Below, in pieces: positions 12,745 through 50,330 of a stretch of DNA of 64,000 nucleotides. The notes under the pieces are model-generated. The model saw nothing but the letters and a program-made list of their open reading frames with translations, was not told the origin of the DNA and made no database searches. The position numbers were made by a program, and so were the translations under genes. The DNA comes from an uncultured Eubacteriales bacterium (GTDB lineage Bacteria; Bacillota; Clostridia; Christensenellales; UBA1242), in NCBI GenBank assembly GCA_900551855.1, contig URXM01000006.1, positions 3,185-67,184 on the forward strand, written 5' to 3'. Within the stretch, counting starts at the first letter, position 1; each line of letters starts with the position of its first letter.

Positions 12745-13004
12745 TTCAAACTGTCAATTATCCTTATCATATTTTCATAGGTTTGTGTTGGCAAATAAGT
12801 TTTAATTTTCTCCAAAGAAGCCATCAAAGCATCATAGTCAAAAGTTCCGTTAAGTTTTTGATTTTCTATCTCTTTTGTCAACATAGAAAACAATTCATCA
12901 GATGAACGATCCTTTAAATCATCATATGCTTTGTTTATGTTTTGTTGTTTTGAAGATGAAATCTTTTCAGAATTTTTCTTTTTTGACATTTCACTCAGTT
13001 TCAT
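12741..13004 (-). CDS. hypothetical small protein, start-stop overlapped with the S8 peptidase gene
   Basis: The ORF-track ORF runs 12741..13118. The internal start MKLSEMSKKK at 13004 avoids overlap with the divergent gene. Its stop overlaps the peptidase ATG by 4 nt. Confidence 0.5.
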   Translation of the reverse strand: MKLSEMSKKKNSEKISSSKQQNINKAYDDLKDRSSDELFSMLTKEIENQKLNGTFDYDALMASLEKIKTYLPTQTYENMIRIIDSLK

Positions 13005-13080
13005 ATTTACCCCTAAAAACAATATATGATTTAGTTTGCAAAATTTACACAAAAACAAAATTTGGTGCATATAAATAAGT

Positions 13081-13491
13081 ATGAATAATTTTTTTAACAA
13101 TCCTTTTTCACAAAACAACCGAGCAAAGCCCTACTATCCAGAAGCATTAAACATAAACGCCCAGTCTCAATCTTTTGATACAAATCAACAGAATGATCAA
13201 CAACAAAACTTTTCACAACAAAATCAAAATTTTCAGCAGAATATTTTTTCAAATCTATTTAATGGACAAAGTGGAAACAATATGTTTTCAAATCTATTCA
13301 ACAGCAACGAACTTTTGACTTCACTTTTGGCTGGCAACTTGTTTGGAAACAACAATAATCCAGACGCAAAAAACAATATGATAATGCAAGCATTGTCAAA
13401 TATGATGACTTCATCAAACAAAAGTCAAAAACAAAGTGAAGAGAATGTAGAAAAAGTTGTTGATGTTTCATCAACATACGAAGAATTATAA
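13081..13491 (+). CDS. hypothetical Q/N-rich low-complexity protein
   Basis: 136-aa ORF with runs such as QQNDQQQNFSQQNQNFQQNIFSNLFNGQSGNNMFSNLFNSN. A strong terminator follows it. Confidence 0.55.
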   Translation: MNNFFNNPFSQNNRAKPYYPEALNINAQSQSFDTNQQNDQQQNFSQQNQNFQQNIFSNLFNGQSGNNMFSNLFNSNELLTSLLAGNLFGNNNNPDAKNNMIMQALSNMMTSSNKSQKQSEENVEKVVDVSSTYEEL

Positions 13492-13496
13492 AAATA

Positions 13497-13530
13497 AAAA
13501 ACCAACCTTTTCAGTTGGTTTTTGTTTTAT
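13497..13530. terminator. bidirectional rho-independent terminator between convergent genes
   Basis: Hairpin aaaaaccaac-cttttca-gttggttttt with a 10-bp perfect stem, flanked by an A-run upstream and a T-run downstream. Confidence 0.75.
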
Positions 13531-14171
13531 TCATCTACAACTTTTCCGTGTTCAAAATAAATTTTTCTCTTACAAATTTTCTCTGCTATTTCTGGTCTTG
13601 TGCAAGCCAAAATCAATGTTGTGTCAGGACCTTTCAATTTTTTAATCAAACTTAAAATAGCATCAATATAAATATCGGAAATTTCATCAAAAATATTGTC
13701 AACAAGAAGCAAATCAAGTTTTCTGAAAGAAAGTCTTATCAAAGACAAAATGTATTTATCTTCCTTTCTTATGTTTTTAACCTTTTCATCTCTGATTTTT
13801 TCAAGAGAGAAGTCAATGATGGCATTGTTGATCATCTTTTCAGCTTCTGCTGGCTTATAACCTTTTTTGTTGAGAATGTATTTAAAGTTTTCATACACTG
13901 TTTTATTTTCCAAAAACACTGGACAATAAGGCACATAGCCGACACTCAAATCGGTTTTGAAATCAATCTTTTTGATAGGTATTTTGTTTATATAAATCTC
14001 TCCAGAATCAAAATCTTCCAATTTTGCTATAACTCTAAGCAAAGTGGTTTTTCCGCTGTTTTGTTCCCCAACAAAAGCAACGCTTTCACCTGGTGCCACA
14101 TCAAGATTGATGTCTTCAAGCGCATAAAACTCTTTTGTATATTTAAGATAAAGGTTTTTTATAGATAACAT
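13527..14171 (-). CDS. ABC-type ATPase-like protein with degenerate catalytic motifs
   Basis: Walker A GEQNSGKTTLL is present. The LSGGQ signature, Walker B DE and H-loop positions are not canonical (YILSLIRLS, LLLVDNIFDE, LILACTRPE). No permease gene lies adjacent. Confidence 0.7.
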   Translation of the reverse strand: MLSIKNLYLKYTKEFYALEDINLDVAPGESVAFVGEQNSGKTTLLRVIAKLEDFDSGEIYINKIPIKKIDFKTDLSVGYVPYCPVFLENKTVYENFKYILNKKGYKPAEAEKMINNAIIDFSLEKIRDEKVKNIRKEDKYILSLIRLSFRKLDLLLVDNIFDEISDIYIDAILSLIKKLKGPDTTLILACTRPEIAEKICKRKIYFEHGKVVDE

Positions 14172-14275
14172 ATTTGCTCCTATTTTTATAGATATATGAT
14201 ACTATATCTTGCAAAAAAATAAAAGTAAATTCACAGATTTTTGAAATTTACTTTTATCTTATATAAAAAACTTTT

Positions 14276-14791
14276 CTACTTTTCGTGTTTTTTGACAGAA
14301 ACTTTGACTTCGCTGGAGATATCTTCACTTAAAACCAAAATCTCTTCTTGACTGTCAGTATTTTCCTTTGTTTCTCCTGCAACCACCCTAAATGTCAAAT
14401 CAACATCATTGTCAGCAGAAAACAAAAACACTCTACTTCCAAAATCTTCGTAGGTTTTGTATCCAGCCTCTCCCTGCACGCCGTTTGTTTTGCTGATAAG
14501 ATATGTCAAATTATACCAATAATCACTTTTAGGAAAACATATAACATATTGTTCTCCCAATTCCTCACCAAAAGCGACCAACTGTTCTTCATTGCTGGAC
14601 TTTATTTGCAAATCAACATATTTATCTTTCACCCTTTCATCGTTGTCCAGACTGACTTTTATTGCATAATCCGTACTCAACGCTCCAGTTATCTCGCTTA
14701 TATGCGCACTTCTAATTTTTGTCTCATTTTCACAGCCAGACAATAAAAAACAAAAACAAACACACAAAATCACGGAAATAAATTTTCTCAT
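14276..14791 (-). CDS. hypothetical lipoprotein
   Basis: Signal peptide with lipobox: MRKFISVILCVCFCFLLSGC. Confidence 0.65.
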   Translation of the reverse strand: MRKFISVILCVCFCFLLSGCENETKIRSAHISEITGALSTDYAIKVSLDNDERVKDKYVDLQIKSSNEEQLVAFGEELGEQYVICFPKSDYWYNLTYLISKTNGVQGEAGYKTYEDFGSRVFLFSADNDVDLTFRVVAGETKENTDSQEEILVLSEDISSEVKVSVKKHEK

Positions 14792-14874: not shown

Positions 14875-15402
14875 TTAGAAATTTACTTCAATCAAACCAT
14901 ACTTATTGTCATTTCTCTTATAAATAACATTAACTTTTCCAGTTTCTGCATTAAGGAAAATGTAGAAAGTATGTCCCAATCTTTCAATGGCATCTTTTGC
15001 TTCTTCAACCATAATAGGATCAAGTTCGAATGTCTTTTTCTTGTAGATTTCTGGCAATTTTACATCTGGCATTTCGTCCAAATATTCAAATCCAACATTC
15101 TTTGGAGCAGTTCTTTTGCTTTGAGTAACTTTTTCTCTGTTTCTAACAATTTGTTTCTCAAGTTTTGGAAGTGCAAGGTCGATGTTTTCATACATATTAA
15201 GTCCAGAAACTTCTGATCTAAACAAAAGACCTTTGTTTGTGATTGTGATTTCCAATTTTTCAATTTTGTTTTGCTTTGAGCAAACAACTCTTGCTGTAGC
15301 TTCTTCGCCAAAATATTTGTTTAATCTTTCCAACTTTTCTGTAAGGACAGTTTTGAATCTTTTAGCAATTTTGTATTTTTTTTCAACAAATGTAATTTTC
15401 AT
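14875..15402 (-). CDS. hpf: ribosome hibernation promoting factor (long HPF)
   Basis: The MKITFVEKKYKIAKRF... start at 15402 is preceded by AAGGAGA, whereas the ORF-track start at 15453 is not. The C-terminal dimerisation-type domain ends ...TGKVNVIYKRNDNKYGLIE. Confidence 0.8.
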   Translation of the reverse strand: MKITFVEKKYKIAKRFKTVLTEKLERLNKYFGEEATARVVCSKQNKIEKLEITITNKGLLFRSEVSGLNMYENIDLALPKLEKQIVRNREKVTQSKRTAPKNVGFEYLDEMPDVKLPEIYKKKTFELDPIMVEEAKDAIERLGHTFYIFLNAETGKVNVIYKRNDNKYGLIEVNF

Positions 15403-40974: not shown

Positions 40975-41157
40975 ATGAGTAATTTGCCAAGATACACATT
41001 GAGAATTCCTAATTCTTTACAACAAAAAATCAAATACACAGCAAATTTTAATGGTAGAAGCAAAAATAAAGAAATTGAAACAGCAATAAAAAGATATATA
41101 AATGATTTTGAAAGATTGCATGGAAATATAGAAATCGACAACGAAGTAGAAGATTAA
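40975..41157 (+). CDS. Arc/MetJ-type ribbon-helix-helix DNA-binding protein (orphan)
   Basis: PRYTLRIPNSLQQKIKYTANFNGRSKNKEIETAIKRYINDF follows the beta-strand/helix/helix pattern of the phage P22 Arc family (...NGRS.N.EI...). AAGGAGG lies 5 nt upstream of the ATG. Confidence 0.7.
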   Translation: MSNLPRYTLRIPNSLQQKIKYTANFNGRSKNKEIETAIKRYINDFERLHGNIEIDNEVED

Positions 41158-41183: not shown

Positions 41184-41212
41184 TTGACAAGAACGATAAT
41201 GTGTTGTATAAT
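41184..41212 (+). promoter_or_regulatory. consensus sigma-A promoter of tRNA-Lys
   Basis: TTGACA (41184..41189), a 17-nt spacer and TATAAT (41207..41212), about 40 nt upstream of the tRNA. Confidence 0.75.
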
Positions 41213-41251: not shown

Positions 41252-41327
41252 GGGTTGCTAGCTCAGTTGGTAGAGCATTCGACTCTTAATCGAAGGGTCC
41301 GGGGTTCGAGCCCCCGGCAACCCACCA
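41252..41327 (+). tRNA. tRNA-Lys (anticodon CTT), CCA encoded
   Basis: The cloverleaf folds by hand. Acceptor GGGTTGC/GCAACCC, D arm GCTC-AGTTGGTA-GAGC, anticodon arm TTCGA-CTCTTAA-TCGAA, T arm CGGGG-TTCGAGC-CCCCG, discriminator A plus CCA. Confidence 0.95.
41317..41327 (+). repeat. left copy of the 11-bp direct repeat GCAACCCACCA (tRNA-Lys 3' end; attL-like)
   Basis: An identical 11-mer recurs at 49565..49575. The match extends to 15/16 if the next 5 nt are included (tacaa vs aacaa). Confidence 0.6.
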
Positions 41328-41404
41328 TACAATATCTTGTTTAAAGGAATTTTTTATAACTAATTTTTGATTAAAATAGTCTAATTAAAAATAAAAAATG
41401 TACA

Positions 41405-41449: not shown

Positions 41450-41532
41450 TTCATTTCAAAATCTTTCTTTATCACTTTTCTTTATTTATCATAAGATTTC
41501 AGCATAATTAAACTTTTCTCTAAAAATATATT

Positions 41533-44500
41533 TTATGACAATAACCATGTTAAATATTCCTTTGCCCAGCCTCTTGACATAGTATCATGATATGCTTGAT
41601 TATCATAATTTCTTAAACAACCATAACAACAAGTTTCTTCACCACAACCACATCTTCCATCTACTTTTCTTAATGCTTCAACTAAAATTTCTTTTATATG
41701 TCCTAACATTCTTTTTACATGTCCCGCTCCATTTGGAACAGTATCAAATAATGTAATACTAAAACCATTAGTATCTCCATTTTCCCATATGGCACCACCA
41801 ATTTCTCTTCTATCTATTTCCATAAACTTTGATGCTCCTTCAATTATAGCATAAAGTATAGACTCAAATTCTGCCATAGGATTTTTATATTGGGGCAAAT
41901 GCAAGACCAAAGCATCAGACATAAAATGATGCCCTAAATAACAACTCACTAACTTTCCTGCGCAAGGGAAATTGTTCGCAGTTCTATGCTCATGTGATAT
42001 TGTCCCATTTTTTGTCAAACTAAGTTGAACATAACCACATTTTTCACAAATATTAAATGCTAATCCTATATTTCTATTTTTAGAAGCATATTTCCCTCTG
42101 TTAATAACAAACATTTCTCCATGTGGAGAATAAATAGAATGTATAACTTTACCTTTTAAGACTATATCATTTTCTTCAATTTTAGCATTTTTTTCAAATC
42201 CATTAAAAAATGTCTCTGAAAAATATTTAACTTCATCTTTTAATTTTACAGATTCTTTATCAGAATCCTTTGTGATAAAACCAAATTGTGGAATAACCAT
42301 TTGCTTATATTTTAGTGTTCTATGACAGCAAGTTTGCTCTCTATTAAGACTTTCTACTCCTAGTGCTGTTTTATAAAAATATATTTTCCCACAACTTTCA
42401 CATATAGCAAAATCATAAGTAGGCCATTCTCTATTAGGTTGTTTCTTTAAAGCATAAGGTTTCCAAAATTTTCCATTTGCAACAACTTGACTCCCTGGAG
42501 CATATTCAGTAATCGCCATCCTCAAATCTCTGTTTAAATCTATTGAACTTTTAACAATATCACTTGTGTTCAAATCTAATGGAACAACATATACAGGGAA
42601 ACCATATCTTGGAAGAACATTATTTTCTGCTAAAAATGAAATATAATCTTTTGAATTATATGTTCCAATCAATTTTTTTAATTTTCCTGCTTCAGAATAT
42701 TTCTTTTCTGCAGAGTATTTTTCTTCTGCATTTGATAATTCATTCATGGAAGCTTCAAAATTATTGATTGCATTATCTAAACAAGCATCTTCATTATTAG
42801 GATTATTGTTATCAACCAATTTCTTAACAAATGACCAATCATTATCAACACCAAGTTCTTTCTTTATCTTTTCTGGAACAATAATATTGATTGATTTAAA
42901 AAGATCTTGTGGTTTTTTGCTCAAAATATTATATAATTCGATGTTCAAATTAGGATGGTTATCATGTGCCAATAAGTCTTTCACAGATTTAAAATTGTAT
43001 CCTATATAACTTAAATAACTAAAAATAACTGAATGAATGTGTCTTCTAACAAGATAGGCATTATTTAACTCTATATAAGGAGCCTGTATAATGCCATTAA
43101 TCATCTTGACAGGATCATTATAATAAGTTAAATCGTGTGATCTTCTCTTTGCAAAAGTTAATATAAAAGCAGCTGATGAACCTCTTCTTCCTGCACGCCC
43201 AGCCCTCTGGATATAATTAGATGTTTCTGGAGGAACATTTCTCAAAACGACAGACTCAAGAGAACCAATATCAACCCCCATTTCAAATGTTGTTGAACAA
43301 CTTAATATATTAACTTCATTTTCTTTGAAATGTTTTTGTAAATCAGTTGCTGTTTGACTTGAAATTTGTGCTGTATGCTCTTTTGCATTCATAGGAATTA
43401 GTTGAATATTTGAAAAACTTTGACGATAATAATCACCTCTATCTTCATTCTCGCTTATTTCAATTAAATTTCCATCGCAATTTGTCTTTGTACAAATCCC
43501 AAAAAGGTTGATTTTTACAGTTTCTCCACATTTATTGCATACATAAAGTTTACCCTTTTGTTTTTCAAAAGATATATTATCCAACCTTAACTGATAATAC
43601 CCATTTACTTTATCTTGAATTAAAATTGGTAACTTTACAACAAAATAATTTTCTTTAAATGATGTTGAAAGTTCATCAAGAAATTTTAGAGATTTTTCAT
43701 TGCTTTCTTCTTGATTAAGGCCTTTATGTTCAAAGAAATGTTGTAAATAGTTTAAACGACTATTTGTTCTTTTGTCAGAAGGCTTAAATCCAAAAACTTG
43801 ATAATCTTTTCCTCTCTCTCCTCCTTGAGTTTTAAAATATGCATTTCTATTTTTCGGTTCAAAAGCATCATCTGTTGGACTAACACCTTCTGGAAATTGC
43901 ACACAACCTTGTCTTCTTAAACTGTCAAACAACACATAAATTATATTAAGGAGCTCATCTTTTGAAATTTCATATTTGTTACAAAAATGATTAATAATTT
44001 GACTATCAATTTTATCCAAGGAATTTATTTTAATATTTATCATACCCAGTCTATTTAAAGACATTCTTGGATCCAATTCAATAATCTCTTGCATGATGTG
44101 TTGCTTAGCAATACTTTTTTTATCATCGTCATTATTTATATCATAGAATAATTTATGTTCATTTGCTATTCTGAAACATCTTTCTGATAACAAATTAAAA
44201 CTTATAGACTCTTCAGTCATATCTTTAATAACATTATAAATAATATTTTTCCACAACCAATCGTTATATCTGTTTTGTATAAAAATTGCAAATTTGGCAG
44301 CATCTTGCCTATTGTCTGAAAACACTAATAATTTTCTGCCATTTATAATTTCATCTTCTGAATTACATACACTTCCCCAAATGCTATCCGTTTTTGTTTC
44401 TTCCTTTTTAGTTTTTTCTTCAGGCAATAATTGGTAAAGTTTTCGTGTTAACATTTCTGTTGCAGAATCTTCACTAGTAGTAAGTTTTCTTATAGTTCCT

Positions 44501-46269
44501 TTATTAAACTTCCCACATTTATAGCAGTTATTTTTTCTTGCTTTTTTAGGAATTTTTGTCATTTTTATAAAGTTAGCAGCCTCTATTCCACAACAAGAAA
44601 TAGTATCTGGAATTTTTGCAGCAAAAAGTTTTCCACACTTAGGGCACATAACATATTCTTGCTTATCTTCTTTTGAATAAGAAAATTCATCTAATGAATC
44701 ATCTTCATCAATTGAAATCTCTCCATCTGATAAAGAAAGCATAAATAAATACTCATCATTATCTTCGGTTGGTATAAGATATTCTTCGCCATTTATCACA
44801 TCAACAGAACCAACTATATATTCTTGTCCACATTTCATACAATTTAATAATTCATAAACTTTATATCCATTATACTCTTTTTTCCTATTAGTAAAGATTT
44901 TTATATCATCAGCAAATGTAATAAATCCTCCTTCCAATGTCCTTGCAAAAACATGATATTTAGCATTTATTAAAGGATTCCCATCAGTTGGCGAAATCGC
45001 TTCTCCACATAGTTCAATAATTTTTGCTATTGTATCTTCTAAACCTGTATCTGTAATTTTTAAATCATTTTTTAATTCATCTGACAATTCTTGAATAGTT
45101 ATTGTTTTTTCCAAAATTCTTTTTCTTATTTCATAAACGAGTTTGTCTTTTGACAAAATATTATATAATTTTGAAGCCTTATCATCTTTGTTATAATTTT
45201 GATATTCAGAAAAAAGTTGTTGGTAATAAGACAAATCTTTAATCTGTCCAGAGACTTCCAATAATGGCAATCTATCAGATTGAATAATTGAATTTTTATC
45301 AAAATATTCATTAAATAAATCTTTTGCAAAATCTACAACTTTTTCAATTTCACCTTCTTCTCCACCAAGTGTAGCACTTGTCCCGATACAAGTTAAACAA
45401 TTATCAATTTTTCCAAAAACTGTTTCTTTCAATCGTCTTATCAACATCGCGACTTCTGTTCCATGTGCACCTTTGTATGTATGTGCTTCGTCTAAAACAA
45501 GAAATTTAAATTTGTTACTATACTTTCCTTTAAAAATTTTTTGGCTTGTTGCTCTTAAAAGCATATATTCTAACATTGCATAGTTTGTAATAAGAATATG
45601 TGGTGGTCGAGCTTCCATTTCAGCACGGGTTAACAATTCATTTTCTAAAGCATCGCTACCATTCACTCTTTTATATTCTTCATTCGCTTCTTTTCTTCCT
45701 TTTTTGATATTATCTCTATTGCCTTCTGGAGTCTCTCCAATATATCTGCCAAAGGTTATTTGTGACAAATTTTTTAAAGATTTCCTTAACCTCCCAATTT
45801 GGTCATTTGCTAATGCATTCATCGGATATATTAAAAGAGCTCTAACACCTGGTGATAAGGTATTATTATCAAATTCATTAAGCAATTCATTTATTATTGG
45901 TATAAAGAAGCATTCTGTTTTACCAGAACCAGTTCCAGATGCAACAATTATACTTCTGTTATTATTTACCAATTTTATAGCTTTTTCTTGATGATTATAT
46001 CTTTTATAAACGGCATATTCGTCATAAGTGAAAGCATTTTTAATATTTTTGTTTAACACACCTTCTTCAACCAATTCTTGTAATGTATGAGTCCCTTTAT
46101 ATGGCATTGTTGCCTGTATAAATGGTCCTTTTAGCAATTGACATTCTTTAGACAAAGCATCTTTTGCAGCTTTGTTTATTTTGTCATTTCTAAAGGTAAA
46201 CTGTGCGTCAAGAAAGTCTTTATATGCTTCGTTTAATTGGTTAAATGTTTTTATTGGGTCTAGTGCCAT
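41533..46269 (-). CDS. large DEAH-box SF2 helicase with zinc-ribbon insertions and a C-terminal DUF1998/MZB domain (DruE/MrfA-like)
   Basis: Helicase motifs are I ASGTGSGKTE, Ia LLIYPMNALANDQ, II LVLDEAHTYKG, III GTSATL, V TTFEMGVDIG and VI QRAGRAGRRG. CxxC pairs are CMKC, CPKC, CYKC, CNKC..C..C, CESC and CEKC. The C-terminus reads GRCGCGEETCCYGCLRNYDNQAYHD. AAGGAGA lies 7 nt upstream of the ATG. Confidence 0.9.
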   Translation of the reverse strand: MALDPIKTFNQLNEAYKDFLDAQFTFRNDKINKAAKDALSKECQLLKGPFIQATMPYKGTHTLQELVEEGVLNKNIKNAFTYDEYAVYKRYNHQEKAIKLVNNNRSIIVASGTGSGKTECFFIPIINELLNEFDNNTLSPGVRALLIYPMNALANDQIGRLRKSLKNLSQITFGRYIGETPEGNRDNIKKGRKEANEEYKRVNGSDALENELLTRAEMEARPPHILITNYAMLEYMLLRATSQKIFKGKYSNKFKFLVLDEAHTYKGAHGTEVAMLIRRLKETVFGKIDNCLTCIGTSATLGGEEGEIEKVVDFAKDLFNEYFDKNSIIQSDRLPLLEVSGQIKDLSYYQQLFSEYQNYNKDDKASKLYNILSKDKLVYEIRKRILEKTITIQELSDELKNDLKITDTGLEDTIAKIIELCGEAISPTDGNPLINAKYHVFARTLEGGFITFADDIKIFTNRKKEYNGYKVYELLNCMKCGQEYIVGSVDVINGEEYLIPTEDNDEYLFMLSLSDGEISIDEDDSLDEFSYSKEDKQEYVMCPKCGKLFAAKIPDTISCCGIEAANFIKMTKIPKKARKNNCYKCGKFNKGTIRKLTTSEDSATEMLTRKLYQLLPEEKTKKEETKTDSIWGSVCNSEDEIINGRKLLVFSDNRQDAAKFAIFIQNRYNDWLWKNIIYNVIKDMTEESISFNLLSERCFRIANEHKLFYDINNDDDKKSIAKQHIMQEIIELDPRMSLNRLGMINIKINSLDKIDSQIINHFCNKYEISKDELLNIIYVLFDSLRRQGCVQFPEGVSPTDDAFEPKNRNAYFKTQGGERGKDYQVFGFKPSDKRTNSRLNYLQHFFEHKGLNQEESNEKSLKFLDELSTSFKENYFVVKLPILIQDKVNGYYQLRLDNISFEKQKGKLYVCNKCGETVKINLFGICTKTNCDGNLIEISENEDRGDYYRQSFSNIQLIPMNAKEHTAQISSQTATDLQKHFKENEVNILSCSTTFEMGVDIGSLESVVLRNVPPETSNYIQRAGRAGRRGSSAAFILTFAKRRSHDLTYYNDPVKMINGIIQAPYIELNNAYLVRRHIHSVIFSYLSYIGYNFKSVKDLLAHDNHPNLNIELYNILSKKPQDLFKSINIIVPEKIKKELGVDNDWSFVKKLVDNNNPNNEDACLDNAINNFEASMNELSNAEEKYSAEKKYSEAGKLKKLIGTYNSKDYISFLAENNVLPRYGFPVYVVPLDLNTSDIVKSSIDLNRDLRMAITEYAPGSQVVANGKFWKPYALKKQPNREWPTYDFAICESCGKIYFYKTALGVESLNREQTCCHRTLKYKQMVIPQFGFITKDSDKESVKLKDEVKYFSETFFNGFEKNAKIEENDIVLKGKVIHSIYSPHGEMFVINRGKYASKNRNIGLAFNICEKCGYVQLSLTKNGTISHEHRTANNFPCAGKLVSCYLGHHFMSDALVLHLPQYKNPMAEFESILYAIIEGASKFMEIDRREIGGAIWENGDTNGFSITLFDTVPNGAGHVKRMLGHIKEILVEALRKVDGRCGCGEETCCYGCLRNYDNQAYHDTMSRGWAKEYLTWLLS

Positions 46270-46271
46270 TT

Positions 46272-49200
46272 TTATATCTCCTTTTTATATGATGATTGAT
46301 TTAACATTTCAGAAAGCAAAGCTTTTGAAAAATCTTTCAACAAATTTTTTATATATTTTGATACTTTTACAAATAAAGAAATATTGTTTTGTATATCGTG
46401 TTGATTTAATATCAAATCAACTATAATCATCAAAATTTGTTTTTCTTCTTTGAATTTTGAAAACTCAGGAATCGCTTTAATCTTCTTCATTTTTTGTTTA
46501 ATATAGTCAACATTATCTACATCTGGGAATAGATAATATTTTTTTGCCCACATAAAATTTTCTTTATCTGTAAAGGTGTCTAAAATTTTCAAATTGTTAT
46601 TTGTTATTTCTTCTAAAAGTTCAACATTATTTTTTAAACAAATATATACGATGTAAAGGTATTTATTATAGTCCAACAATTCTATAAAAACTCTTCTATC
46701 CATTAAATTTTCTTTTTTAGTTATTGGAACATATAGAAATAATTCATTCGTTATTTTATCAAATTGTTCTTTACTTAAATCATATTGAAACAATAGTTTT
46801 AATATAATCTCATCTCCAAAGTGAAATCTATTTTTAAAAATATATTTTAGTAAATATTTTATAACCTTCAAATATTCTTCGTTCGACTGAAAAAAGTTAG
46901 TATTAAATCTATAAAATAAATAACAATAAACAGCATTATTTAAATCATCTATGTTGTCGTCTTGAAATGCTAATTGTGAAAAATCATTATCTTTAACCCA
47001 CAAAATAGTAGTATTTTTGCTATCAATTAGATCTTTTTTCTCATTTGTCGAAAAAATACTATTTTCTTTATTACTTACTATTTCAACAACACAATTATCT
47101 ACAAGTCTTTCATCATTATCATCTATATAAGCCATTAAATTATCATCTTTAATTGGTATAGAAAAGAATTTATATGGCTTTGACAAATATCTAAAAACCA
47201 TTTGTCTATTTTTGCAAGAGCCATCTTCATCCCATTGAAATATATATGTATTGCCTAATTTATTTAAAAAAAAGTTTCTTATAGATATATTAATTCTAAT
47301 CTCGCAAATTTCACAAATCTTATCAAAATTTTCTTCAATTGAAATCAAACACGAATTCTCTCCTGAACATATAAATTCGATATATTCCACAAGATTAATA
47401 ACTGTTTTTGAAGATTTTCTTATTCTTAAGGATTTTTGATTAACATTGTTGTTAAACCTTACATATATGTCGGAATTTGTATTATTAGTAATAGTTAGAA
47501 GGCAATCTCCATCAATTTTTAAATCTTTAACTGATAAAAATGCTTTTTTATTTGGTTGTCCAAATAATTTGTTATTTGATTCAATTATCCATTTATATGG
47601 CTTAATAATAAATTTGAATTTATACTCCTTCTCATTATAAACATAATATCCGTTAAAAATATCACAAGAACTTGGTATATTTACTCTGTTTATTATTTCA
47701 TGATTGCTATCTAATATTTTACATTTATCACGTGATTTAAAAATTATATATGAATTTTTGTATCCACTAACTCCTGGATAATATTGACTAAAATCAATAT
47801 TAACTGCAGGTAAATATAAAAATTTAAATGTCTTATATCCAATCTCTGGAAAGTAAAATCTTAATCCTATTTTCCCAAAACTTAATCTTCCAATATAATT
47901 TGACATGTCAAAAACAAAATTTTCAATAACAACTTCTTCATCTATAATTTTATTTTCATCTACACTGATTTTTACTTGCCATTGACCGTTAAAAGGGACC
48001 TCTATTTTCGGCAACAAACTAAATGCTTCCAACCCTTCAAAATAGCAGTTATCGCTTATTAATTTGTTATCACTTATTAATTCAAAAGGTCTTTTAATCT
48101 TTATGTTAAAAGTATCTAGATTTGATTTAAATATAACTTCTCTTTTGTCAGTTGTTGGTGCTTGATAGTAAACATTGTAGCCATTATAAACGCCTATTAG
48201 TTCTATAGTATTGTCATCTGTTTTGTAATTTCCATCAAGTAAAATATATGCTCCATTGTTTAAAATAAATTTTGATTTGTTAAGTTGTCCAAAATTGTTA
48301 AAAGTTAAATACTTATCGTTTTTATCCTTTAAAGTATATTCGCATAATAGAGTGTTAATATCATTTAATAATCTTAATTTAATTTCATCAAATTGATTAA
48401 GAATTATGGTTGAAGTTCTAAAGAAATATTCATCGTTTAACTTCTCACCATAAATTTTTCTATAACCTACTTTATCACCACTATAAACTTCCCAAATACA
48501 AAAAGCAGTATCCTTCATTGTCATTTCAGGTGTATCTATAACAACTTTATTGCTATTTATATCAAATCTCAATGTTAGTTTTTTATATCTTGAAGATATA
48601 TATCTATTATCATTATCTTTTCTATTATTACACCAATTTATGATTCCTTTTTGAAAAGGTATTGGCAGGATTGAAGTTTCATTTATAATCTCAATTTTAT
48701 CTTTAATTGCACTAATAATTTCAAAAACAAAATCACTCAATAATCCATTTTTGTTTAATAAGTCAATATATCTTTTTACATTTTTAGTGGAATATCTAAA
48801 TACATATAATGTTTCATCAGCTAAATTATTATACGAAATTTCTTGTAACATTAATGGTTCTAAATTGTCCAAAAAATTATTAATAAGGTTATTTGGTAAC
48901 CCAGAATGAGCAATTATTGGAGCAAGATTTTTATAGCTATCTTCTTTTAAATTTTGAAAACTACTCAAATTATAAATGGAAATTGTTCTATCAAATGCTT
49001 TTATCAACAATTCTCTTTTGTTTGGTTGTGAGATATTTGTCAGTCTTTCTACAGCCTGCCAAAATCCACCTTCTCTATCATTATAAAAATATTTTGCAAT
49101 GCCAACAAGAAAGATTGTTATTGTTTCTTTTATATCATAGACTTGTTCCCATGACATATAATTTGCAATCTGAGATAATTTTTTACCAATCTCAATTGTC

Positions 49201-49295
49201 TCTTCTTGTGAAAAAAGCACCTTTTCAATCAACTCATAATTTTCAAGTCTTGAAAGTCTATCTTTGCAAATCTGGTTTATTTCTGCTAAATCCAT
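46272..49295 (-). CDS. 1007-aa protein of unknown function, first gene of the helicase operon (possible DruH-like partner)
   Basis: Long uninterrupted ORF. I could see no Walker, nuclease, HNH, PLD or TM motif. The ends look helical and the middle looks beta-rich. Its stop codon lies 2 nt before the helicase ATG. Confidence 0.85.
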   Translation of the reverse strand: MDLAEINQICKDRLSRLENYELIEKVLFSQEETIEIGKKLSQIANYMSWEQVYDIKETITIFLVGIAKYFYNDREGGFWQAVERLTNISQPNKRELLIKAFDRTISIYNLSSFQNLKEDSYKNLAPIIAHSGLPNNLINNFLDNLEPLMLQEISYNNLADETLYVFRYSTKNVKRYIDLLNKNGLLSDFVFEIISAIKDKIEIINETSILPIPFQKGIINWCNNRKDNDNRYISSRYKKLTLRFDINSNKVVIDTPEMTMKDTAFCIWEVYSGDKVGYRKIYGEKLNDEYFFRTSTIILNQFDEIKLRLLNDINTLLCEYTLKDKNDKYLTFNNFGQLNKSKFILNNGAYILLDGNYKTDDNTIELIGVYNGYNVYYQAPTTDKREVIFKSNLDTFNIKIKRPFELISDNKLISDNCYFEGLEAFSLLPKIEVPFNGQWQVKISVDENKIIDEEVVIENFVFDMSNYIGRLSFGKIGLRFYFPEIGYKTFKFLYLPAVNIDFSQYYPGVSGYKNSYIIFKSRDKCKILDSNHEIINRVNIPSSCDIFNGYYVYNEKEYKFKFIIKPYKWIIESNNKLFGQPNKKAFLSVKDLKIDGDCLLTITNNTNSDIYVRFNNNVNQKSLRIRKSSKTVINLVEYIEFICSGENSCLISIEENFDKICEICEIRINISIRNFFLNKLGNTYIFQWDEDGSCKNRQMVFRYLSKPYKFFSIPIKDDNLMAYIDDNDERLVDNCVVEIVSNKENSIFSTNEKKDLIDSKNTTILWVKDNDFSQLAFQDDNIDDLNNAVYCYLFYRFNTNFFQSNEEYLKVIKYLLKYIFKNRFHFGDEIILKLLFQYDLSKEQFDKITNELFLYVPITKKENLMDRRVFIELLDYNKYLYIVYICLKNNVELLEEITNNNLKILDTFTDKENFMWAKKYYLFPDVDNVDYIKQKMKKIKAIPEFSKFKEEKQILMIIVDLILNQHDIQNNISLFVKVSKYIKNLLKDFSKALLSEMLNQSSYKKEI

Positions 49296-49386
49296 ATCAA
49301 AATTTCCCTTTGCTTTTGTATTAACTTAATTATGATAATAATACTATTAACATTATCAAAATTCATTTCTATATTGTATATAGTAT

Positions 49387-49395
49387 ATTATAGCA
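49387..49395 (-). promoter_or_regulatory. candidate extended -10 (TGcTATAAT) for the island operon
   Basis: The minus strand reads tgcTATAAT about 92 nt upstream of the ATG at 49295. The -35 is weak (TATAAC). Confidence 0.35.
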
Positions 49396-49455
49396 TACTT
49401 TTCCTTAATGTTATAAAATATTTTACAAAATTTACTTGTTTATTTTTTCTTTTTT

Positions 49456-49464
49456 CCCCCCCCC
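49456..49464. repeat. C9 (G9 on the operon strand) homopolymer tract
   Basis: tattttttcttttttCCCCCCCCCagtg. It is the only long G:C homopolymer I noticed in the window. Confidence 0.9.
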
Positions 49465-49564: not shown

Positions 49565-49575
49565 GCAACCCACCA
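49565..49575 (+). repeat. right copy of the 11-bp direct repeat GCAACCCACCA (attR-like)
   Basis: Identical to 41317..41327. The terminator hairpin at 49582..49610 follows immediately. Confidence 0.6.
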
Positions 49576-49579
49576 AACA

Positions 49580-49616
49580 AAAAGGAAGTTGTTTTTTTTG
49601 CAACTTCCTTTTTTAT
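49580..49616. terminator. bidirectional terminator (HD gene; ancestral tRNA-Lys terminator?)
   Basis: Hairpin aaggaagttg-ttttttttg-caacttcctt with a 10-bp perfect stem, an A-run upstream and a T-run downstream. Confidence 0.7.
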
Positions 49617-49622
49617 TTTGTC

Positions 49623-50330
49623 TTAATCAAATTTTAATAAATATACATACATCTCAAAAGCAAATAAAACAATTCTTTTGGCAGTATTAGTTCTTAACAT
49701 ATCAATTTGAATCTTAGGATAAGGCAACCTTACTCTATCTAGTCCATCAGCATCTTTTAAAAGATTAAATAACTTTTTGCACTTATTTTTATCTTTAACT
49801 TTATAAATTTCAATATACTTATCTATCTCACTATCATTCATACAATGACAGGCAACAATAGTTTTCATTAAATTCAATTCTTCTTCATTATAATCAATTA
49901 AAAAATCAAATTTACTCGCACTTTTAAGCCCATGTTTATAATCCACACAGTCATCTGTTCTTCCAATATCGTGATATTTAGCACAATCTATCAACATTTC
50001 AAATTCTCTCATTGATATATCTTCAAAATTTGCTAAAATATACGCAAAAATAGAAACTCTTATATTATGATTTATTCCATGCATATTGCTCTTATATAAT
50101 TTTTCTGGTTGTATATTTTTTATTTTTTGTATAAATTGTTCTTTAAATTTAGAGCTTTCAAAAATGTGTGATATTTGTTCTTTAGTTATAGGGATTATTC
50201 CCATCTTTTTTAAATCTTGTTTTGTCTCAACATAATAATTGTAAAGATAATCGTTTGTTGTAATTTTAAATAATTTATTACAATTAACTAAATCATCTAT
50301 AATTTCATCTATATTTGATAACAAATCCAT
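49623..50330 (-). CDS. HD-domain phosphohydrolase-family protein
   Basis: Contains HGINHNIRV, AKYHDIGR and LKDADGLDR, giving the H...HD...D metal-ligand pattern. Confidence 0.75.
   Translation of the reverse strand: MDLLSNIDEIIDDLVNCNKLFKITTNDYLYNYYVETKQDLKKMGIIPITKEQISHIFESSKFKEQFIQKIKNIQPEKLYKSNMHGINHNIRVSIFAYILANFEDISMREFEMLIDCAKYHDIGRTDDCVDYKHGLKSASKFDFLIDYNEEELNLMKTIVACHCMNDSEIDKYIEIYKVKDKNKCKKLFNLLKDADGLDRVRLPYPKIQIDMLRTNTAKRIVLFAFEMYVYLLKFD

Follow-up and report, generated by a model that had tools for sequence, protein, structure and literature searches.

The question raised by the 64,000-nucleotide stretch analyzed here (contig URXM01000006.1; the whole stretch is called the window below) is what kind of protein accompanies its defense-type helicase, DruE. 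The gene directly upstream of druE (46272..49295, minus strand) is an open reading frame (ORF) whose translation begins at an ATG and runs for 1007 amino acids (aa) to a stop codon. A first-pass annotation had described its product as the partner of the helicase, without recognizable catalytic or binding motifs, and as the likeliest place in the region for new biology. Our analysis indicates that the 1007-aa protein is most probably a very divergent DruH, acting as the accessory subunit of a compact, two-gene Druantia type III system of the III-B kind. In a recent classification of YprA-family systems, it is the combination of a compact DruE lacking PLD domains with a DruH that constitutes Druantia III-B (bioRxiv 10.1101/2025.09.15.676423). 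The DruH family has been characterized since 2026, and the protein encoded here is a hard-to-detect member of that family rather than a protein of a new kind.

Homology to the DruH of Mycobacterium smegmatis

The evidence that carries this assignment comes from Mycobacterium smegmatis, in which experiments established MSMEG_1253 as a DruH indispensable for defense together with MSMEG_1254, the DruE of that system (PMC13316683). Among the proteins compared, MSMEG_1253 (P0319) was identified by its genomic context, since the next gene encodes a 1667-aa DruE and the two overlap by 17 bp, just as in the published locus. A profile of 132 non-actinobacterial relatives matches this protein with an E value of 1.2e-37 over 500 residues. 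Likewise, when the nine-sequence family of the 1007-aa protein was aligned with the actinobacterial family by hhalign, a match of 84.5 % was obtained (E = 6.9e-6) that extends over 514 colinear columns. The homology to MSMEG_1253 spans the N-terminal domain as well as the first immunoglobulin (Ig)-like domains.

Comparing the two systems, both are two-gene operons in which the partner is encoded directly upstream of druE and coupled to it, and in both the DruE is devoid of PLD domains, ends with an MZB domain, and is colinear with its counterpart. However, direct similarity between the two DruH proteins is undetectable, the hidden Markov model (HMM) of alignment A2 giving P0319 only 8.7 bits. 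The M. smegmatis DruH is also longer (1132 aa versus 1007 aa here), and the host of the present system, a low-GC gut Clostridia represented by a metagenome-assembled genome (MAG), is unlike M. smegmatis. Based on these sequence comparisons, the 1007-aa protein can be firmly placed in the M. smegmatis-type DruH family.

The same arrangement is found well beyond these two hosts. Of 68 genomic loci retrieved for DruE relatives, 58 had a readable upstream side, and in 54 of these the large ORF abutting druE (930–1540 aa) belongs to a single DruH-like superfamily. Proteins of this superfamily, which range from 930 to 1540 aa and comprise 112 representatives at 50 % clustering, occur in Firmicutes, Actinobacteria, and Chloroflexi, where their genes directly precede those of DruE relatives. 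The pair of 1007-aa and 1578-aa proteins itself recurs in a Clostridia MAG from roe-deer rumen, where the partner is 36 % and the DruE 66 % identical to the proteins of the window and the flanking sequences are unrelated. In that rumen MAG, a divergently transcribed WYL-domain gene lies upstream of druHE (L001:8848-9831, minus strand); it is absent from the window, and WYL regulators are common beside defense systems. No relatives were found when IMG/VR was scanned or when PLSDB plasmids and INPHARED phages were searched by tblastn.

Domain architecture and relation to canonical DruH

A full-length model of the 1007-aa protein was generated by AlphaFold2 from nine homologs, with a mean predicted local distance difference test score (pLDDT) of 79, and its secondary structure was assigned by DSSP. 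The model places helices at residues 3–236, strands at residues 241–765, and helices again at residues 782–1006, in agreement with the three-part layout that the first-pass annotation had read from the letters alone. The peptides quoted there are located in the translation at residues 76–85 (GGFWQAVERL), 127–145 (IIAHSGLPNNLINNFLDNL), 395–406 (FNIKIKRPFELI), 559–570 (FKFIIKPYKWII), and 708–718 (YKFFSIPIKDD).

The N-terminal all-alpha domain (residues 1–236; 48588..49295, minus strand) is the most widely conserved part of the protein, and its separate AlphaFold2 model reached a pLDDT of 91.4 and a predicted template modeling (TM) score of 0.87. In alignment A4 of this domain, Trp79, Gly132, and Pro134 are invariant, while Val64, Tyr71, Phe113, His130, Phe142, and Trp221 are conserved in at least 90 % of the sequences; the domain thus bears Trp79, Tyr71, and the motif H130-x-G132-[LI]-P134. 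Foldseek detected no fold neighbor of the domain model in the PDB (best E = 0.68; the library comprised releases to 8 April 2026, without DruH structures), and hence no known catalytic or nuclease fold can be assigned to it.

The middle region (residues 241–765; 47001..48575, minus strand) is predicted from the DSSP assignment and the Foldseek matches to consist of about six Ig/Fn3-like beta-sandwiches. Judged from the grouping of strands, their approximate borders would be residues ~241–335, 345–410, 415–497, 499–565, 567–668, and 672–766. An invariant C661-x-x-C664 pair and the sequence W688-x-E-D-G lie within this region. Foldseek aligned it with strings of Fn3, Ig, and MG domains, including those of OSMR (E = 7e-9), RPTP-sigma, fibronectin, and complement C3, with E values from 7e-9 to 1e-5, and the tandem beta-sandwiches anticipated for the middle of the protein are thereby borne out. 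As the global TM-scores of the whole-model matches are about 0.1, the likeness is only that of generic tandem beta-sandwiches. The C-terminal helical domain (residues 782–1007; 46275..46952, minus strand) includes an invariant G827-D-E and is the least conserved part of the protein, with per-domain identities of 26–30 % in distant members of the close family.

The statement that the protein has no textbook catalytic, transmembrane, or signal motif also held. Regular-expression scans of the 1007 residues revealed no Walker A, DEAD/DExH, HxK/PLD, HNH, GIY-YIG, SIR2-like, or TIR-like motif. A transmembrane segment and a signal peptide are absent, the Kyte-Doolittle mean over 19 residues being at most 1.2 and the N terminus polar, and no cell-wall anchor motif was found. 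Searches of the protein against Pfam-A, PADLOC-DB, and NCBIfam returned 0 families at E ≤ 0.1–1. The PDB sequence search yielded only noise with the single sequence (proteasome beta5 and Fab chains, E > 0.07) and nothing with the family profile, and the isolated N- and C-terminal domains gave only noise against Pfam at E ≤ 10 (PIN_2 at 0.025 and DUF7486 at 0.0067). Loose PD-(D/E)xK matches at residues 273 and 924 were rejected because the residues are not conserved.

When compared by description, the domain order of the model agrees with that published for DruH. The Pseudomonas aeruginosa DruH, as resolved by electron cryomicroscopy (cryo-EM), has alpha-helical domains at its N and C termini with an array of about six Ig-like domains between them (bioRxiv 10.64898/2026.05.13.724313), and the description of E. 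coli DruH as a multi-Ig/Fn3 protein fits the 1007-aa protein as well. For sequence comparison, canonical DruH was represented by full-length E. coli YjiT (strain 23CRST013; 1828 bits with PADLOC DruH), its family, and the N terminus of PDB entry 9tud_A. The N-terminal domain aligned by hhalign with the YjiT family plus 9tud_A at 90.7 % (E = 1.2e-6), with 131 colinear columns and the same N-terminal offset, whereas the reversed control gave 1 %. In this alignment, Trp79 corresponds to Trp89 of YjiT within W-x-x-[VI], and H130-x-G-L-P corresponds to E138-G-G-L-P within [HE]-x-G-[LI]-P. YjiT and the 9tud DruH have only their N-terminal ~250 residues in common (E = 1.7e-21), and similarity restricted to the N-terminal domain is therefore normal within DruH.

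The system of the window and the canonical III-A systems are alike in the druH-druE gene order, the layout of helical domain, Ig array, and helical domain, the remotely homologous N-terminal domain, and the lack of classical catalytic motifs. However, canonical DruH has a conserved glutamate in its EGGLP sequence, where the 1007-aa protein has His130, and the III-A DruE carries tandem PLD nuclease domains that are missing from the 1578-aa DruE. As far as sequence can tell, the 1007-aa protein is only remotely related to the YjiT family, and through its N-terminal domain alone. The match to MSMEG_1253 (E = 1.2e-37), the N-terminal domain alignment (90.7 %), and the architecture known from cryo-EM together largely displace the earlier view of a protein outside any characterized family.

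Several results weigh against calling the protein a DruH. The 12 DruH models of PADLOC miss the query and the 26 relatives tested, M. smegmatis DruH among them, and the NCBIfam model STY4851/ECs_5259 gives no match to the 1007-aa protein. Precomputed annotations of PF27205 and PF27201, both of which are present in YjiT relatives, are absent from the eight closest clusters (P0001–P0008) and from the actinobacterial family; this absence rests on the precomputed annotations, as the Pfam copy scanned here excludes the two models and gives 0 matches for E. coli YjiT itself. BLASTP of the 1007-aa protein against E. coli YjiT found nothing, and hhalign of the narrow A2 profile against the YjiT family was not significant (E = 0.11). 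An HMM of the N-terminal domain searched against the entire PDB at E ≤ 10 did not retrieve 9tud_A, the entries returned at E values of 0.3–0.4 being TetR and carbonic anhydrase, and the actinobacterial and YjiT families showed no direct hhalign signal to each other. Beyond the N-terminal domain, similarity to canonical DruH is not detectable, and within it the conserved Glu75 (CSEW/AAEF in YjiT and 9tud) aligns, in a low-confidence alignment, with a variable Gly/Ser here. Moreover, any mechanism proposed for the protein is drawn wholly by analogy, and the 2026 literature is split on whether DruH is a nuclease.

These results leave room for a non-homologous analog: DruE could have recruited an unrelated Ig-array protein, creating a new Druantia-like type with, for example, a purely protein-sensing scaffold. 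The failure of all curated DruH models would then be expected, the canonical DruH link would amount to one profile-profile match of ~130 residues that the PDB-wide HMM search missed, and Ig-like arrays converge easily. We nevertheless regard such an analog as quite unlikely, since the link to the M. smegmatis protein, a functional DruH, is strong (E of 1e-37 over 500 residues; PMC13316683), and since YjiT and 9tud also share the N-terminal domain alone and the domain order is identical.

With a divergent DruH as the preferred reading, the comparison exposes an annotation gap, in that the entire superfamily of DruE partners, including M. smegmatis DruH, is missed by PADLOC 2.0, the Pfam YjiT models, and NCBIfam. 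Censuses thus undercount Druantia III in Gram-positive bacteria and in the gut microbiome. The N-terminal helical domain is the only element common to all DruH-like proteins, which suggests that the functional core of DruH is this domain rather than the Ig array.

Some members of the superfamily are fusions. In one of 1345 aa (P0050), a DruH-like N-terminal domain is joined to a C-terminal region matching PADLOC MzaA (E = 2e-46), and a DruE partner of 1527 aa (L025:1406-5986) contains a PglW-like stretch (E = 9e-12), which suggests that the N-terminal domain is a module common to other defense systems. Two types of DruH also exist in E. coli, namely the solved 1119-aa protein (9tud_A) and YjiT, a 1096-aa protein from the immigration-control locus of K-12 (L074:4475-7762). 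K-12 MG1655 has a truncated yjiT of 505 aa together with a yjiV (druE) pseudogene.

The druHE operon and its possible mode of action

The partner gene druE (41533..46269, minus strand) encodes a 1578-aa SF2 helicase of the YprA/MrfA type, as identified by Pfam and PADLOC. The PADLOC models DruE1 (625 bits, E = 1.3e-187) and DruE3 (562 bits, E = 1.2e-168) both match it, and its sequence matches in the PDB are 9tu7 and 9wae. It contains motif I (GSGKT, residue 114), motif II (DEAH, residue 260), a Helicase_C domain, and an MZB Zn-ribbon at residues 1473–1552 in which the cysteines are intact. The protein stops right after MZB; DEAD, Helicase_C, and MZB are the only domains found by Pfam, and there is no PLD or other nuclease domain. 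BLASTP aligns it colinearly with M. smegmatis DruE (31 % over 1634 columns), whereas E. coli DruE matches in only two blocks and continues for ~380 aa further, where its PLD domains are found. The druH-like gene precedes druE on the same strand with a gap of 2 nt and is translationally coupled to it. The first-pass annotation was thus right to see in the 1007-aa protein the operon partner of a defense helicase.

The close family of the 1007-aa protein is small, amounting to eight clusters at 36 % identity or more among 5.8 billion proteins. Identities to these homologs range from 86 to 36 %, their lengths are ~1005–1021 aa except for one truncated contig, and 111 columns are invariant in the alignment of close homologs; the cluster at 86 % identity contains 182 member sequences. 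With length and invariant positions retained in this way, the gene is by these measures not decayed, and the frameshifted or decayed ORF that had been considered for the relatives was not encountered. It is accordingly very unlikely that the locus is a decaying or nonfunctional remnant on a degraded island, like yjiT/yjiV of E. coli K-12. Although the islet has lost its integrase and decay of a Druantia III locus is on record in K-12, neither ORF is shortened here, the helicase retains motifs I and II as well as the MZB cysteines, and homologs of 36–86 % identity keep the same length and invariant columns, with 182 members in the nearest cluster. A cell-surface or S-layer adhesin with Ig-like repeats that merely adjoins the helicase gene is scarcely credible: the top Foldseek matches do come from Ig/Fn3 arrays of extracellular receptors, an S-layer protein (SbsC), and adhesins, but at a global TM-score of ~0.1 they reflect generic domain likeness only, the signal peptide, transmembrane segment, and anchor motif are absent, and both the 2-nt coupling to druE and a synteny kept in more than 50 loci across phyla speak for a partner of the helicase.

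The published roles of DruH differ. In one account, DruH is a 3'-5' exonuclease that has its site in the N-terminal helical domain and recognizes forked DNA, and it recruits and opens an autoinhibited DruE dimer via the C-terminal helical domain. In a rival account, DruH is a binder of single-stranded DNA (ssDNA) that has no nuclease activity and is competed by ATP. Residues Arg22, Lys28, and Glu64 are essential in P. aeruginosa DruH, the C-terminal helical domain of which docks on the DruE stalk (10.64898/2026.05.13.724313). M. smegmatis DruH is toxic alone, binds DruE homologs, and has a minor tail protein as its activator; acting jointly with DruE, it blocks phage DNA circularization and replication (PMC13316683). 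The idea that the 1007-aa protein is the likeliest place for new biology fails insofar as it meant an unknown family, the protein being assignable to DruH, although the biochemical role of DruH is itself disputed in the 2026 literature.

By analogy with these systems, the Ig array and the N-terminal domain would sense infection, candidate signals being phage structural proteins made late in infection and/or ssDNA and forked replication intermediates with free 3' ends. The DruH-like protein may shorten the 3' strand or keep hold of it, and its C-terminal helical domain would dock on the DruE stalk, a role that we infer for this protein from the studied ones, and would thereby lift autoinhibition and load DruE for 3'-to-5' unwinding. 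The low conservation of the C-terminal domain would be in keeping with a domain that coevolves with its cognate DruE. DruE would unwind DNA in the 3'-to-5' direction, and the outcome would probably be that phage DNA circularization and replication are blocked by unwinding and sequestration. Since the 1578-aa DruE possesses no nuclease domain, any cleavage would have to come from DruH or host nucleases, and since it lacks PLD domains, the DruE-nuclease step reported for III-A cannot apply.

It is conceivable, if somewhat improbable, that in III-B systems the DruH-like protein is the sole nuclease. The N-terminal domain would then be an unclassified 3'-5' exonuclease or DNA-end-binding fold with histidine in place of glutamate, and the Ig array would serve as a hypervariable receptor for phage proteins. 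Systems whose DruE has no PLD domains are natural test cases for the nuclease activity of DruH that is disputed among the 2026 preprints. A comparable pairing is known from DNA repair in Bacillus subtilis, where the YprA-type MZB helicase MrfA is accompanied by MrfB, a separate accessory protein with a proposed role in 3'-end processing. MrfB is a small DnaQ-like 3'-5' exonuclease; the 1007-aa protein differs from it in its large Ig array and is not known to carry DnaQ motifs.

The tRNA-Lys islet and neighboring features

The two genes form a druHE cassette of 7.95 kb (41501..49452, minus strand), as delimited by blastn of three other Clostridia MAGs (L005, L006, and L007) against the window at ~90 % DNA identity. 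The DNA similarity to these MAGs is limited to the two genes and their promoter region, and the flanks are unrelated. The islet is bordered by a tRNA-Lys(CTT) gene (41252..41327, plus strand; ARAGORN), its integration target. A repeat search identified an att-like direct repeat of 16 nt that bounds the islet, copy 1 of which (GCAACCCACCATACAA; 41317..41332, plus strand) consists of the last 11 nt of the tRNA 3' end and 5 nt more, while copy 2 (GCAACCCACCAAACAA; 49565..49580, plus strand) abuts a hairpin terminator. The 11-mer of the repeat occurs exactly twice in the window.

In L006 (MGYG-HGUT-04512), genes for a helix-turn-helix protein, a 152-aa product, and, beside tRNA-Lys(CTT), a tyrosine integrase follow the cassette, and a partial tRNA copy of ~45 nt is present upstream of druH; the elements of this islet lie at L006:2597-2645, 12959-14305, and 15142-15217. 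Because the tRNA repeat is found here and an integrase-bearing version in L006, the window carries an integrase-less derivative (~8.25 kb) of a tRNA-Lys-targeting defense islet. The GC content of 24–28 % at the islet, against 30–35 % in the flanks, fits this reading. The cassette is of interest as a mobile unit, compact at 8 kb, with tRNA-Lys as its target.

Upstream of druH, a consensus scan gave two candidate sigma-70-like promoters, which are pattern matches only, at 49414-49387 (with an extended -10) and 49359-49332 on the minus strand; the promoter region is conserved with L005–L007. A homopolymer of nine G residues on the operon strand (C9 on the plus strand; 49456-49464) lies in a region of 25 % GC, ~40 nt upstream of a promoter-like -35 hexamer and exactly at the conserved edge of the cassette. 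This tract could be a slipped-strand, phase-variable element or a recombination scar.

A bidirectional hairpin terminator with a 14-bp stem (49579..49613) separates the druHE operon from an upstream ORF of 235 aa (49623-50330, minus strand). No family could be assigned to this ORF, the only matches being faint ones to HDIG (E = 0.007) and CSN8. As a candidate third component it was rejected, for it lies behind the terminator and outside the cassette common to L005–L007 and is absent from the RGIG4786 locus. The neighbors of druHE comprise alr, an rsmD-like gene, glmS, tRNA-Lys, the 235-aa ORF, and rubrerythrins. Among them, PADLOC found no match to the Druantia I/II accessory genes DruA-D/M/F/G, and it recognized no other genes in the druHE flanks. 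Between alr and tRNA-Lys, a 60-aa ORF (MSNLPRYTLRIPNSLQQKIKYTANFNGRSKNKEIETAIKRYINDF...; 40975-41157, plus strand) has the look of a ribbon-helix-helix/Arc-type DNA-binding protein, and a perfect TTGACA-17-TATAAT promoter (41184-41212, plus strand) stands ahead of tRNA-Lys.

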